A DNA stretch of 64,000 nucleotides from Gammaproteobacteria bacterium (GTDB lineage Bacteria; Pseudomonadota; Gammaproteobacteria; Poriferisulfidales; Poriferisulfidaceae), in assembly GCA_026706895.1 (NCBI GenBank), contig JAPOXW010000020.1:57329-121328 (forward strand). Direction: 5' to 3'. A program made the position numbers and the translations under genes. Every line of letters begins with the position of its first letter. The first letter of the stretch is position 1. Of the stretch, positions 6,846 through 13,413 are shown piece after piece. Under the pieces are notes generated by a model. The model had not been told where the DNA came from, did no database searches, and saw nothing but the letters and a program-made list of their open reading frames with translations.

Positions 6846-6922
<77 letters not shown>

Positions 6923-8430: not shown

Positions 8431-9308
8431 CCCGCTGTGGGTTCGTGGCACTTTGCGGCAAGCCGAACGTCGGCAAGTCGACGTTGTTCAACCGTCTGCT
8501 GGAGAAGCCGCTGTCTGCCGCCACCGGCAAGCCGCAGACTACCCGGCACAACATCAAGGGCATTCTGACCGAGCAGGGCAACCAGTTCGTTTTCGTGGAC
8601 ACGCCCGGCATCCATTCCGGGCGGGTTCGGGCGCTTTCTCAATTGCTCAACGCCAACGCCAGCGAAGCCATGAGCCAGGTGGACGTGGCGGTGATGGTGG
8701 TGGAGGTCGGGGTATGGAACGCACGCGACGAAAAGGTGCTGAGTGAATTGCGCGACGCGAAGATCCCGGTCATGCTGTGCGCCAACAAGATCGACCGCAT
8801 GCCTGACCAGGCATTGATCCTGCCGTATTTTGCCCAGTTGGCGGAGCACGAGTTTCTTGAGTACATCCCGGTCAGCGCGCGAACCGGGGAAGGTTGCACG
8901 GTTCTCAAGGAGAACCTGGCGAAGCATGTCCCGGAGCGGGAGCATTTGTTCGAAGCAGACGCGCTGACGGACCGGCATGAACGTTTCTTCGCGGAGGAAT
9001 TGATTCGGGAACAGTTGCTGATTCAGCTGGACAAGGAATTGCCCTACGTCATGCATGTCCAAGTGACCGGCTTTCAGAACCAGGAAGAGCGCGTGCACAT
9101 CTCTGCGCAGATCCTGGTGGAGCGAGAATCGCAGCGCAAGATCCTGCTTGGCCGCAACGGCACACGCATCAGTGCCATCGGGCGTGCAGCACGGCTGCGC
9201 ATGGCCGGGCTCCTGGATCAACCGGTGGTCCTGAAACTGCACGTCAAGGTGCAGCCGAACTGGCAGCGGGACCCGAATATCCTGGCCAGCTATCGCGGAG
9301 GCGTGTAA
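8418..9308 (+). CDS. era: GTPase Era
   Basis: GKPNVGKSTLFNRLL P-loop, DTPGIH, C-terminal KH domain; rnc-era-recO order. Confidence 0.95.
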   Translation: MDIVTRCGFVALCGKPNVGKSTLFNRLLEKPLSAATGKPQTTRHNIKGILTEQGNQFVFVDTPGIHSGRVRALSQLLNANASEAMSQVDVAVMVVEVGVWNARDEKVLSELRDAKIPVMLCANKIDRMPDQALILPYFAQLAEHEFLEYIPVSARTGEGCTVLKENLAKHVPEREHLFEADALTDRHERFFAEELIREQLLIQLDKELPYVMHVQVTGFQNQEERVHISAQILVERESQRKILLGRNGTRISAIGRAARLRMAGLLDQPVVLKLHVKVQPNWQRDPNILASYRGGV

Positions 9309-10003
9309 TGCGGCAGGATGAACTGGTCGCAGCGTACGTGATCCAGGCGCGTCCTTGGCGCGAGACCAGCTTGCTTTACAAGGTGGTCGCACAGGACCAT
9401 GGGCGGGTCAGCCTGATCCATCGCGGGGCACGCAACAACCGCCGTGACCGGCCGCTGCCGACATTGACCCCGGTACGGGTGTCCTGGGGCGGGCGCGGCA
9501 GCTTGTACACCCTGCACCACGCCGAGGTCGCCGGCCCGATGACGGTGAAAGACCCGAAGCGGCAGGTCTACGCCCTGTACGTCAACGAGATCGTCAGCTA
9601 CCTGCTGCCGGACGACCGCTATTCGGACGAGATCTATCCGCTGTACCACGAGGCACTGGCTCATCTGGACACTGCCGCGGACCCTGAATTCGTGCTTCGC
9701 GGAATCGAGATGGACTTGTTGCACTTGGCCGGTCACCCGCTGCAACTGGATCGCACCGAACAGGGGAAGGTCGAACCGGGGCGGCAATATCGTTATCACC
9801 CGGGCGCCGGGCCCACGGAGCTTCCGGAGGGAAGCGAGGCGGATGGGGTCAGCGGTCAGACCCTGCTGACTCTCCAGACCCGACAGGAAATGGACGAGCA
9901 AACGCGGCGCGAGGCGCGCCGCCTGATGCGGCAGGTGTTGGACTACTACACGGCCCCGAACGTGATTCGGTCGCGGGGCATTATGCAAGCCCTGACGGGC
10001 TGA
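9308..10003 (+). CDS. recO: DNA repair protein RecO
   Basis: 231 aa; N-terminus AYVIQARPWRETSLLYKVV... typical RecO OB fold; synteny after era. Confidence 0.85.
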   Translation: MRQDELVAAYVIQARPWRETSLLYKVVAQDHGRVSLIHRGARNNRRDRPLPTLTPVRVSWGGRGSLYTLHHAEVAGPMTVKDPKRQVYALYVNEIVSYLLPDDRYSDEIYPLYHEALAHLDTAADPEFVLRGIEMDLLHLAGHPLQLDRTEQGKVEPGRQYRYHPGAGPTELPEGSEADGVSGQTLLTLQTRQEMDEQTRREARRLMRQVLDYYTAPNVIRSRGIMQALTG

Positions 10004-10033
10004 TCCCTGTAACGCCGCCGATTTGAAGAGGGG

Positions 10034-10891
10034 TTAAGGCAAGCGGTCTTCGGGTTCCGGCGGTTGTCCCCCGTCCCTACGCAAGATGCGCAATGCCGCT
10101 TCGATATCAGCCTCGGCTGCGCCCGCAGCGAAGAATGATGCCGTCTTCATCGCGGAGACCTTTTCGGCGACTGCCATGACGACGAACTGGTTGATGCTCG
10201 TACCTTCCTCCTTGCAAACCTTGGCGACCGCCGACTCCAGGGATGCTGGCCACTTCAAGGAGAAAGCGCTGGCACGGTCGGACTTGCTGGTCGCAGGGTC
10301 CGAGTGGTTGGGGATGTGTTGATTGTCGCGGCAGTACTGCCACAGGTAAGCATCAACTTGTTGCCGAGTGAGTTCATGCTCCCGGCTCAGAAACGTGACC
10401 ATCTCTTCCACGGTTGCGGAACACGCGGCGGCGCATTGCTTCATCCAAGTGTCAGGCTTCTCCGTGTCTTCAAGACCGATGGCCGTTGCCAGGTGTCGGC
10501 TCGTGGCGGGTCCCATATAGGGAAGTTCCGTAAGCACAACCCTGCCGTCCTTGCGCATCCGTTGCTTGAAAGCCTCCCATCCTTCCGCGTGAATCAGTTT
10601 GCACCCCTTGAGGAAAGCATCCGCCTTCCGCTGATTGCGGATCGGCAACGTCTTAGCGTCGATTGACTCCATGGCCACGATCCTGTCCAGGTCGAGGTTG
10701 TGGAATTTCTTGACGATGGTGTCGAAGTGCTCCTCGACGACTGAATTTCGAAAACCTGAGACAAAGATGACATGGAGGTAATTCTCGAGAAATCCTTTCA
10801 GATCGAGATCGTTGAAATTCCATGGCTCCCACGGGTTGCCAACATATGCCCGTGCGGTTTCCAGCATCCGTGTTGCCTTGTTCTTGTCCAT
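10034..10891 (-). CDS. hypothetical protein: N-terminal domain weakly Tag-like (3-methyladenine glycosylase I-like HhH) fused to a C-terminal ribbon-helix-helix (HicB/CopG-like antitoxin-type) tail
   Basis: 285 aa on the opposite strand, inserted between recO and pdxJ. C-terminal LKWPASLESAVAKVCKEEGTSINQFVVMAVAEKV...EADIEAALRIL..PPEPEDRL matches the RHH antitoxin pattern; the N-terminal assignment is tentative. Confidence 0.5.
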   Translation of the reverse strand: MDKNKATRMLETARAYVGNPWEPWNFNDLDLKGFLENYLHVIFVSGFRNSVVEEHFDTIVKKFHNLDLDRIVAMESIDAKTLPIRNQRKADAFLKGCKLIHAEGWEAFKQRMRKDGRVVLTELPYMGPATSRHLATAIGLEDTEKPDTWMKQCAAACSATVEEMVTFLSREHELTRQQVDAYLWQYCRDNQHIPNHSDPATSKSDRASAFSLKWPASLESAVAKVCKEEGTSINQFVVMAVAEKVSAMKTASFFAAGAAEADIEAALRILRRDGGQPPEPEDRLP

Positions 10892-11000
10892 TTGTCATTG
10901 CCGTTTGCGGGCTATTCTAATCAAAGTGCTGCCTGATGTTGTTGAGTTCGGAAAGCCATTAGTGGTACAGTGTTAGCAGCAAAAACTATTCCGCAGTAAC

Positions 11001-11723
11001 GTGACGAATGTACGACTAGGCGTGAATATTGACCACATAGCGACCCTGCGCCAGCAGCGCCACACCGACTACCCGGACCTGAGCGAGGCGATCCGCCGAG
11101 TGGAAGCGGCCGGGGCGGACGGCATCACCATGCACCTGCGCGAAGATCGGCGGCACATTCAGTTGGAGGACGTGGAGCAGGCGCGCCGGGAAGTGAGCGG
11201 GACCCTGAACCTTGAGATGGCCGCAACCGAAGAAATGTTGGACATCGCGGAGCGCATTCGCCCGGACTACTGCTGCCTGGTGCCGGAGCGGCGCGAGGAA
11301 CTCACCACCGAAGGCGGGCTGGACGTCGTGGCGGGCGCAGACCGGATCCGGGAGGCATGCACTCGGCTGAAGGCGGCGGGCATTCAGGTTTCGCTGTTCG
11401 TCGAACCGACGCACGAAGTGATGGATGCAGCGGTCGAACTGGGTGCGTCGATCGTGGAGTTGCACACCGGTCCCTACGCCAACGCGACGGAACCGGAAGC
11501 CCACGAGGCGGAGCTGGAACGGCTGGTTTCCACCACGCAGTATGCGCGTGAACGGTTGACGGTCAACGCCGGACACGGCTTGCATCGCGACAACGTGGGC
11601 TCGGTGGCTTCGATCCCGGGAATGAACGAACTTAACATCGGTCACGCCATCGTTTGCCGGGCGGTGATGGTGGGATTGGAAGCAGCCGTGCGCGAGGTGC
11701 GCGAAGCCATGGAGACGCCATGA
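11001..11723 (+). CDS. pdxJ: pyridoxine 5'-phosphate synthase
   Basis: GTG start; [19 protein letters not shown]...[13 protein letters not shown] typical PdxJ. Confidence 0.9.
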
Positions 11724-12613
11724 GGGAGTATCCGACCATCGAATCCAGCATCGGCAACACGTCGCTGGTTCGCCTGCAGCGCATGGCGCCCGAGGGAGTC
11801 ATGGTGTTGGCCAAGCTGGAAGGAGACAATCCGGCCGGCTCGGTCAAGGATCGCCCGGCCATCAACATGATCGAGGCCGCAGAGGAACGCGGAGACATTC
11901 GTCCGGGCGACACGCTGGTCGAGGCGACCAGCGGCAACACCGGGATTGCGCTGGCGCTGGCGGCGGCGATCCGCGGCTACCGGATGATCCTGATCATGCC
12001 GGAGAACATGAGCCTGGAACGGCGCCAGACCATGGCGGCGTACGGGGCTGAACTGATCCTGGTCACGCAGGAGGAAGGCATGGAGGGGGCCCGCGACCGG
12101 GCGCTGGAGATGAACCGTGCGGGCGAAGCGTTCATCCTGAACCAGTTCGACAACCCGGACAACTCGGATTCGCATTATCGGGGCACCGGGCCGGAGTTGT
12201 GGCGGGACACCGGGGGTGAACTGACGCATTTCATATCTTCCATGGGCACGACCGGGACCATCAGTGGGGCGGGGCGCTACCTGAAGGAGCAGAATCCCGA
12301 CATCGAGGTGATCGGCGTGGAGCCGGCGGACGGTTCCGCCATTCCGGGCATCCGTCGCTGGGCGGAGGGGTACGTCCCGAAGATCCTGGAGCGGGACGTG
12401 GTCGATCGGGAAATCGACGTTACGCGAGAAGACGCGGAAAACACCATGCGCGAACTGGCGAAGCGGGAAGGGATTTTCGCCGGGATCTCATCGGGCGGCT
12501 GCATGCACGTGGCTCTGCAGGTGGCGGCGGAAGTCGCGCCGGGGTCGGTGATTGCCGCTATCGTGTGCGATCGCGGAGACCGCTACCTGTCCTCGGGAGT
12601 CTATCCGTCATGA
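11720..12613 (+). CDS. cysM: cysteine synthase B-like (O-acetylserine sulfhydrylase)
   Basis: ATG 11720 overlaps pdxJ stop; [34 protein letters not shown]-fold motifs; ~298 aa and the QFDNPDN region resemble CysM. Confidence 0.8.
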
Positions 12614-13413
12614 TCGGAGACGTGCTGGCCTTCGACATCGAGACCATTCCGGATGCGAAGCTGGGCCGGCGCCTTTACGATCTCTCAGACGATCTCCCCG
12701 ACGAGGACGTGGTGCGCGCCATGGAGCAGTTGCGCATGCAGAAGACTGGCGGGCACCTGTTTCAGCCGCTGTACCTGCAGAAAGTAGTCTGCATCTCGGT
12801 GGTGTACCACACGGAGTCGGTGTTGGTTGCGAAGTCCCTGGAGGATATCGACGCGGATGAACGCACAATCATCCGCAACTTCTTCGATGGCATCGAGCGG
12901 GCTGCCCCGCGGCTGGTCACCTGGAACGGCAACGGGTTCGACCTTGCGGTGCTGAACTACCGTGCCATGTATCACGGGATCTGCGCTGCGCGCTTCTGGG
13001 AGACGGGCGACAACGAGCGGGAATTCCGCTACAACAACTACATCAGCCGCTACCACGAACGGCACCTGGACCTGATGGACGTGCTGTCACGCTACAACCC
13101 GCGCGCCTCGGCCGGGCTCGACGACTTTTCCACCATGCTGGGCTTCCCCGGGAAGCCGGAGGGGATGTCAGGCGGCGAGGTGTGGCCGGCCTATCGGGAC
13201 GGGCGGCTGGCCGAGATCCGCGAGTACTGCGAAACCGACGCGATCAGCACCTACCTGGTGTTCCTGCGCTTCGAATTCCTGCGCGGCAACCTGCTGCGGG
13301 AGGAGTATGTCGAACTGTGCGACCAGCTGCAGTCCTACTTGGAGGAAGAGGACAAGGCCCACTTCCGTGATTTCCTGACGCGGTGGGATCGCGAGAACGA
13401 TCCGGTCGGCTAG
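12610..13413 (+). CDS. predicted 3'-5' exonuclease related to the PolB exonuclease domain (RNase H-like)
   Basis: ATG 12610 overlaps cysM stop; N-terminal LAFDIETIPD (exo I DxE) and later dispersed acidic motifs (YCETDAIST); resembles the COG3298-type standalone exonuclease. Confidence 0.55.
   Translation: MIGDVLAFDIETIPDAKLGRRLYDLSDDLPDEDVVRAMEQLRMQKTGGHLFQPLYLQKVVCISVVYHTESVLVAKSLEDIDADERTIIRNFFDGIERAAPRLVTWNGNGFDLAVLNYRAMYHGICAARFWETGDNEREFRYNNYISRYHERHLDLMDVLSRYNPRASAGLDDFSTMLGFPGKPEGMSGGEVWPAYRDGRLAEIREYCETDAISTYLVFLRFEFLRGNLLREEYVELCDQLQSYLEEEDKAHFRDFLTRWDRENDPVG

Follow-up and report, generated by a model that had tools for sequence, protein, structure and literature searches.

What is a single gene of 285 codons doing on the minus strand between recO and pdxJ? 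A window of 64,000 nucleotides (by which we mean the whole stretch of DNA analyzed) from the gammaproteobacterial contig JAPOXW010000020.1 raises this question; a first, sequence-only reading had described the gene as an inserted orphan joining a possibly Tag-like domain to a ribbon-helix-helix (RHH) tail. Overall, that interpretation is supported. The protein joins an N-terminal domain of the HhH-GPD DNA glycosylase superfamily to a complete RHH antitoxin; both parts belong to known superfamilies, we found no earlier description of their pairing, and no curated family covers the protein. Our preferred reading, to which we give a probability of roughly 0.4, is that of a horizontally acquired, solitary and self-limited monofunctional HhH-GPD glycosylase whose targets would be non-canonical bases, probably as part of a conflict with mobile DNA, and for which the RHH module may provide dimerization and promoter binding.

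An insertion between recO and pdxJ

The open reading frame (ORF) lies exactly where the sequence-only reading had placed it, starts with ATG, and is convergent to recO and divergent from pdxJ (Table 1). The 140-kb metagenome scaffold from which the window comes encodes the identical protein. Many database entries start it at Met9 (277 aa); Met1 is the likely start because stand-alone homologues of other phyla share the N-terminus MDKxKAxxML. The lower GC content noticed earlier is real: the gene has a GC of 0.564 and a third-position GC (GC3) of 0.69, compared with 0.60-0.65 and 0.76-0.85 in its neighbours, and the 109-bp spacer upstream of it drops to 0.44.

That the gene is an insertion is shown directly by genomes in which the site is empty. 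In two relatives, with RecO 85% and 72% identical, recO is followed by pdxJ about 100 bp later, and the empty sites, in genomes L035 and L034, align to the window on the left up to ~10004 and on the right from ~10962, leaving a foreign segment of ~10005-10961. The empty-site genomes share with the window the downstream order pdxJ, PALP/cysM-like, PolB-exo-like, dapE, arsC and dapD. Orthologues 77-90% identical occupy the same recO/pdxJ position in several related assemblies, the nearest genome records being metagenome-assembled genomes (MAGs) named 'candidatus Porisulfidus' or Chromatiales; Porisulfidus has been described as a known sponge symbiont. One supposed sign of insertion, the presence of cysM instead of acpS after pdxJ, has to be given up: because a cysM-like gene follows pdxJ in genomes lacking the insertion as well and is native to the lineage, the absence of acpS there is unrelated to it. 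The leader upstream of the gene has a mean identity of 89% over five orthologous loci. The most conserved upstream block lies outside the insert, as the empty-site alignment identifies it as native pdxJ upstream DNA (GTGGTACAGTGTT).

The same gap has taken up more DNA elsewhere. In Porisulfidus OZ241993.1 (L007:3426-5900) it is further occupied by an IS1595 transposase with a frameshift, an N6/N4 DNA methyltransferase and an ORF of 199 aa without known function, the latter two possibly a restriction-modification pair. These genes sit ~25 nt upstream of the glycosylase-RHH start, where the native leader has been replaced by one with a perfect TATAAT. The additional foreign genes indicate that the recO/pdxJ spacer acts as a small hotspot for foreign DNA.

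A glycosylase-like domain joined to an antitoxin

Scans of the whole protein against Pfam and NCBIfam returned nothing above threshold, and a Pfam scan of ten multi-domain relatives gave only one sub-threshold match, to DUF6642. The PADLOC model 'OGG' (PDLC00910) matches residues 25-191 (167 residues, model positions 37-206 of 215) at E 1.5e-26 and stand-alone relatives at 7e-27 to 9e-20. With a threshold of E<=1e-3, an exhaustive profile search brings up about 700 clusters defined at 50% identity, the majority being single-domain proteins of 200-225 aa, and a database search finds more than 740 homologues of the tail; the protein is no orphan. Profile searches with the two parts separately, as had been suggested, point to Ogg2 and Nth for the N-terminal domain and to Arc for the tail. 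In the PDB, the single sequence recovers only Arc, a profile of close homologues (A1) recovers no glycosylase, and only a broad profile (A5, from a 75-sequence alignment reaching 23% identity) detects glycosylase structures. These are MjOgg (3fhf/3knt; E 3e-6, positions 11-198 to 12-207), TmOgg (3n0u; 4.7e-5), SsOgg (3fhg; 4.8e-4) and EndoIII (0.01-0.05), so that homology to Ogg2 runs over the full domain at the level of the family and escapes the single sequence. Tag is matched at 4.4e-5 over the N-terminal half only; the suspected resemblance was thus a genuine though incomplete sign of the superfamily. Whole-domain homology to Tag is missing and Ogg2 scores higher.

The domain has the two-lobed, all-alpha fold of Nth, MutY, AlkA and Ogg, and carries the helix-hairpin-helix (LPxxG), Gly/Pro-rich loop and Asp at the fixed spacing of that superfamily. 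By hhalign it matches E. coli Nth with a probability of 78% (E 1.7e-5), and LPYMGPAT...EKPD147TW falls in register with GIGYK129...D147 of MjOgg and LPGVGRK120...D138 of Nth. Near-invariant in the 75-sequence alignment are F34, G46, K89, G127, G139, K145, D147 and D180. The Lys nucleophile (Nth K120, MjOgg K129) is absent, being Ala129 in the window protein and a residue other than Lys in the family consensus. Monofunctional HhH-GPD glycosylases (MutY, AlkA, MagIII) lack this Lys as well, and as judged from the alignment the retained Asp together with Ala129 is the pattern of these enzymes, unlike that of the inactivated EndoIII sensors of END nucleases. Four cysteines (C97, C153, C157 and C187, within 10307-10891) are fully or almost fully conserved within the clade formed by the close homologues and not in the wider family, and may form a clade-specific metal site or disulfides.

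The missing Lys could also be taken to mean that the domain is an inert base-recognition module, sensing modified or damaged bases while the RHH module turns the signal into transcriptional control or the recruitment of another factor. There is precedent for HhH-GPD domains being re-used as sensors of hypermodified phage DNA, in the END nucleases, and some stand-alone members of the present family adjoin NERD or PLD nucleases. We consider such a sensor unlikely, because monofunctional glycosylases do without the Lys too, no nuclease recurs as a partner, and the catalytic-type Asp and KPD motif are near-invariant throughout the family whereas the END sensors have lost their catalytic residues.

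The tail was correctly taken for an RHH of the HicB/CopG antitoxin type. It shows the N-terminal beta-strand, the two helices and the Arc-like sequence signature of Arc/MetJ/CopG proteins, matches the Arc repressor at E 0.008 (single sequence) and 0.004 (profile) and PHROG Arc-like repressors at 6e-5, and is up to 84% identical over 83 aa to stand-alone HicB-family antitoxins (e.g. MKKSASTYPLRLP...GGQPPEPEDRLP). Nearly all of its homologues stand alone, at 83-84 aa. In metagenome contigs the stand-alone gene lies behind a PIN_3 gene with an overlap of 4 nt, and a Methylosinus plasmid has the two annotated as 'PIN family toxin' then 'HicB family antitoxin'. Because the free homologues follow PIN_3/PIN toxin genes, the tail corresponds to the whole antitoxin of a toxin-first toxin-antitoxin (TA) module, and is orthologous to bona fide antitoxins; the conserved C-terminal extension is presumably the partner-binding part in the stand-alone relatives. 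Around the ORF there is no PIN or RES gene within 8 kb on either side and no second copy of the tail in the 64-kb window, and the slot upstream of the antitoxin is filled by the glycosylase-like domain. Elsewhere, identical RHH antitoxins of 83-84 aa (P0309, P0317 and others) recur on up to 12-14 different contigs each, so that the PIN-RHH module seems to exist in many copies or to be shared widely among these metagenomes.

How the two parts came to be joined can be followed in some detail. Stand-alone glycosylase-like homologues end at ...NQR(I/V)P, and it is from this point that the fusion ORF runs on. Orthologues with a long linker still hold the antitoxin's own N-terminus internally (...DRAMKKPASTYPLRLP...), and in the window and its nearest relative 10 codons of the linker are gone, the antitoxin's Met among them. 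The simplest history would be a two-gene order, glycosylase-like then RHH, which became one ORF when the stop codon between them was lost, prior to the divergence of the Porisulfidus copies. One relative (L032, 4220-4919) has at the same locus a 194-aa N-terminal domain only, with a stop right after ...NQRIP, and the first ~40 nt of the linker joined straight to the last ~25 nt of the tail. These remnants indicate that the RHH was deleted secondarily, and, since the N-terminal domain was kept without it, that the RHH is an accessory and not a requirement.

Pairwise Nei-Gojobori comparisons of six orthologous copies give dN/dS (omega) values of 0.16-0.35 for the N-terminal domain (residues 9-194); the RHH core lies at 0.09-0.25 and the C-terminal extension at 0-0.55. 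In the linker of 14 residues omega is close to 1, as in neutral evolution, yet the linker changes only by in-frame indels of 5 and 10 codons. Both domains and the frame that joins them are therefore held by selection, and by this measure the gene is coding, functional and under purifying selection. In the same genome pairs dS, measured over few codons, is higher in the RHH part (10037-10267; 0.15-1.2) than in the N-terminal domain (10307-10867; 0.21-0.36), which could stem from recombination with free copies of the antitoxin, of which there are many.

These values bear on the idea that the tail is the part that matters, as a chromosomal decoy ('anti-addiction') antitoxin against the PIN toxins of incoming elements, for which the fusion would be incidental and the promoter borrowed. 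Free antitoxins sharing 76-84% identity with the tail abound, in many copies, in metagenomes of this kind, and purifying selection acts on every part of the tail. We nevertheless find a decoy very improbable: the N-terminal domain is equally constrained; the frame has survived several indels in the linker, which suggests that selection acts on the fused product; forms with a short linker, the window's among them, no longer have the internal Met needed to produce a free antitoxin; and L032 kept the N-terminal domain and not the tail.

A more serious rival is a fused TA module with a logic like that of CapRel, in which the glycosylase-like domain would be a DNA-damaging toxin in the slot of PIN, and the RHH would repress the promoter and inhibit the toxin in cis until a trigger (e.g. 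a phage protein or proteolysis of the tail) releases it, resulting in abortive infection or addiction. Stand-alone tails are genuine antitoxins encoded downstream of PIN_3 toxin genes, the glycosylase-like ORF takes the exact upstream position of the toxin, and the long linkers keep the antitoxin start (AMKK(S/P)ASTYPLRLP). Conservation of the C-terminal extension is equally strong in the fusion and in free antitoxins, and a second type of antitoxin, HigA, is fused to a distant family member. Database ORFs also join the tail to PIN or RES toxin domains, although these could be artefacts of gene calling or assembly. Still, about 70 of 93 close homologues and the majority of the 700 clusters stand alone without an antitoxin-like neighbour, and an unguarded toxin is hard to reconcile with this. 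L032 lost its RHH and retains an intact N-terminal domain under purifying selection, and the full-length AlphaFold2 model has no confident contact between the domains and gives the linker and tail low confidence (pLDDT) scores. A fused TA module is thus a real contender that we nonetheless hold to be improbable.

A mobile family and its possible role

The neighbourhoods of the homologues, a census of which had been recommended, show the family to be mostly solitary and set in variable contexts. Close homologues that stand alone (51-71% identity) belong to MAGs assigned to Nitrospirales, Bryobacterales/Acidobacteriota/Terriglobia, Alphaproteobacteria and Pseudomonadales, and identity at this level across phyla indicates recent horizontal transfer. 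Judging by their isolate names, these MAGs may stem from sponge metagenomes. No RHH was found by tblastn near any of 20 stand-alone loci, and comparing 151 neighbour ORFs (20 loci) by all-vs-all BLAST gave no recurring neighbour family, only pairs from closely related genomes. At one locus a NERD protein is encoded 40 bp upstream in the same orientation, and Dcm lies close by; others have a convergent PLD/NgoFVII-like nuclease, a resolvase with transposases, or IS elements with Cas genes. Among 119 neighbour ORFs, a census with Pfam and PADLOC also lists ThsB-TIR (2), integrases (2), AbiEii-like ATPases (2), McrBC, a type II methyltransferase and restriction endonuclease, MazG_C, Nmad2 and Hen1.

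Such mobility argues against an ordinary repair glycosylase for oxidative or alkylation damage, an analogue of Ogg or Tag with a DNA-binding tail acquired by chance, even though the best relatives with structures are 8-oxoguanine glycosylases and Tag and the gene sits beside recO. The adjacency stems from the insertion, with the gene on the opposite strand; the gene is present or absent among close relatives and foreign in composition; it shares 60-70% identity across phyla in variable, mobile contexts; and the catalytic Lys of Ogg is missing. A housekeeping role of this kind is hardly to be expected.

According to the preferred reading, the Ogg2/Cap11-like domain probably removes a modified or damaged base by means of Asp147, without AP (apurinic/apyrimidinic)-lyase activity, and it was in the Porisulfidus lineage that this enzyme would have captured a complete PIN-type RHH antitoxin as its C-terminal module. 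The RHH would make the protein a dimer that binds DNA, most likely the gene's own imported promoter, and in this way would keep a potentially genotoxic enzyme at a low, self-limited level. Its role would most likely lie in conflict with mobile DNA (e.g. the excision of hypermodified phage bases) and less likely in routine repair. The fold, the homology, the conserved motifs, the insertion, the history of the fusion, purifying selection and solitary mobility are established by the data; catalysis, substrate, dimerization, autoregulation and a part in defence are inferred from them. As to the substrate, 7-deazaguanines are an attractive guess given the link to Cap11, the OGG-related accessory protein carried by type IV operons of the cyclic oligonucleotide-based antiphage signaling system (CBASS).

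Several observations weigh against this reading. L032 shows that the N-terminal domain can stay intact, and under selection, without any RHH. Between 10860 and 11010 we found no sigma-70 consensus promoter, terminator, or direct or inverted repeat. The defence-type neighbours, given as raw counts, are mixed with housekeeping genes. Relatives of the N-terminal domain are absent from IMG/VR, INPHARED phages and PLSDB plasmids, save for one weak plasmid match to a distant member. The PADLOC 'OGG' model itself appears to derive from Cap11, and Cap11, the only relative studied, can be dispensed with in defence and has a proposed substrate other than DNA. (A retron origin of the model was dropped, as no paper linking the two was found and the literature supports the link to Cap11.)

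If the preferred reading is true, a sizeable uncharacterized branch of HhH-GPD proteins (~700 clusters) has gone without a Pfam or NCBIfam model and is recognized only by the model of a defence database. Its retained catalytic-type Asp and its movement between MAGs of several phyla would make it a candidate for a single-gene base-excision defence or toxin activity, and it would offer a tractable stand-alone relative for working out the role of Cap11 in type IV CBASS. The history of the locus (empty site, filled site, internal start codon, in-frame linker indels and tail deletion) would show how the antitoxin of a TA module can be re-wired onto another effector, and bears on how TA and defence modules diversify. 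Going further, Cap11-like HhH-GPD proteins might form an unrecognized class of solitary base-excision conflict effectors whose genotoxic activity is controlled by antitoxin-type modules (RHH here, HigA-type helix-turn-helix elsewhere), of which the window protein would be a single-chain 'glycosylase toxin-antitoxin' that replaces the PIN toxin. On this view, and with 7-deazaguanine or a comparable modification of phage DNA as substrate, no HhH-GPD defence glycosylase with catalytic activity would precede it, and it would provide a handle on the function of Cap11. We hold this bold generalization to be improbable.

Other architectures were met in and around the family. P0107 (325 aa), a distant member, has an N-terminal HigA-type antitoxin helix-turn-helix (PDB 3cec, E 6.6e-16) and is, on this profile match, a second case in which the family has independently joined up with a DNA-binding domain of antitoxin type, here in reverse order. 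P0148, P0168, P0176, P0185 and P0207 share a domain of ~110 aa before the glycosylase-like domain (MTDKEIA.RL..V..V.TP.Q.I.N.I..V....VVV.S.RT...R.IP..DLR.A..V..NGV.V..LA...G), which has no Pfam match. In P0092 (290 aa) the same RHH antitoxin is N-terminal and followed by a ~190-aa domain with an LPGV..PTA....D motif and a helix-hairpin-helix-like look; it may be another RHH/HhH-type fusion and was not counted, having no significant relation to the glycosylase-like family. P0021 was not counted either, its N-terminal extension being not demonstrably RHH. The sole plasmid match (L052:6001-6378, Piscinibacter gummiphilus plasmid NZ_CP136337.1) falls in a stretch without a listed gene, ~1 kb from an SOS-response-associated peptidase (SRAP, of the abasic-site-crosslinking family) and near HEPN and thermonuclease genes.

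Table 1. Features of the inserted gene and its flanks (window positions)
Feature	Position	Strand	Description and basis
Foreign segment	10005..10961	.	~0.96 kb; only this gene, ~70 bp of its own upstream leader and ~30 bp downstream; empty-site alignments, GC/GC3 dip
ORF, 285 aa	10034..10891	-	Ogg2/Cap11-like HhH-GPD glycosylase-like domain, linker and RHH antitoxin module
Residues 1-195	10307..10891	-	Glycosylase-like domain of the HhH-GPD type, all helical; its end coincides exactly with that of stand-alone homologues (...NQ(R/H)IP)
Residues 120-149	10445..10534	-	Helix-hairpin-helix, Gly/Pro loop and Asp (LTELPYMGPATSRHLATAIGLEDTEKPDTW); hhalign to E. coli Nth, hidden Markov model alignment to MjOgg, conservation
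Residues 196-208	10268..10306	-	Variable linker, former intergenic spacer; neutral evolution, in-frame 5- and 10-codon indels between relatives
Residues 209-248	10148..10267	-	RHH core (beta-strand SAFSLKWP, helices 216-229 and 233-254)
Residues 249-285	10037..10147	-	Conserved antitoxin C-terminal extension (FFAA..AEADIEAALRILRRDGGQPPEPEDRLP); (near-)invariant columns in 60 stand-alone homologues, dN/dS 0-0.55
Upstream leader	10892..10961	-	Imported with the gene; conserved TAGAAT (-10-like) and AACATCAGGCAG block; presumed promoter, possible operator
Native pdxJ upstream region	10962..11000	+	GTGGTACAGTGTT block; also in empty-site genomes, outside the insertion
recO	9308..10003	+	Left flank; Pfam RecO_N/RecO_C for the same gene in L001
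pdxJ	11001..11723	+	Right flank; Pfam PdxJ

Two further features of the window lie outside the insertion. A tRNA-Pro(GGG) at 6846-6922 (+), between a MerR-family gene and a signal-peptidase (lepB-like) gene, accounts for the spurious overlapping ORFs listed there. The PolB-exonuclease-like gene at 12565-13413 (+; PF10108 DNA_pol_B_exo2, E 7e-80) follows the cysM-like gene, the ends of the two overlapping, and its synteny is kept in all relatives whether or not the insertion is present.

Comparison with known systems

In agreement with the sequence-only reading, the searchable literature yielded no account of a fusion between HhH-GPD and RHH domains, and each of the systems that come close differs in some essential. 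Cap11 is a protein of 23.5 kDa without proven activity; CBASS defence proceeds without it and its deletion raises toxicity, and a protein-nucleobase conjugate has been proposed as its substrate. The present domain resembles it in its strong match to PDLC00910, its size and the defence-island flavour of its neighbourhoods, and differs in being solitary and fused to an RHH. A type IV CBASS operon comprises a CD-NTase, Cap9, Cap10 and an effector. The gene is flanked by recO and pdxJ, and neither a CD-NTase, Cap9 (QueC-like) nor Cap10 (TGT-like) was seen near it or at ~25 homologous loci, or in the top-25 family lists of the census.

Among the repair enzymes, Ogg2 (the archaeal-type 8-oxoguanine glycosylase/AP lyase) has K129 in MjOgg where the present proteins have Ala or Val, and the K-P-D motif, K89 and D180 are near-invariant features specific to the present family. 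Tag (3-methyladenine DNA glycosylase I) finds no match over the half that carries the helix-hairpin-helix and the Asp, and is outscored by Ogg2 and MutY/AlkA/Nth; it lacks the catalytic-type Asp that the present family keeps. The PIN_3-associated 'HicB family antitoxin' (83-84 aa) is contained as a complete copy, with the same RHH fold and the same position downstream of a partner ORF; here, however, there is no PIN toxin, the partner is glycosylase-like, both form one polypeptide, and the window variant lacks the antitoxin start codon and 10 linker codons.

END nucleases join a PLD or PD-DExK nuclease to an EndoIII/Ogg sensor that is catalytically inactivated, its catalytic residues having been lost. 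They have in common with the present protein an HhH-GPD/Ogg-like domain used outside classical repair, fused to another module and placed in a defence context; the present protein has no nuclease domain, keeps the catalytic-type Asp and has a transcription-factor-type RHH as partner. Brig1/2/3, finally, are single-gene defence DNA glycosylases that excise modified phage bases. They belong to the uracil-DNA-glycosylase superfamily and not to HhH-GPD, and have no relation in sequence or fold to the present family. The excision of modified phage bases, as carried out by Brig1/2/3, is nonetheless the mode of action that we propose for the protein inserted between recO and pdxJ.
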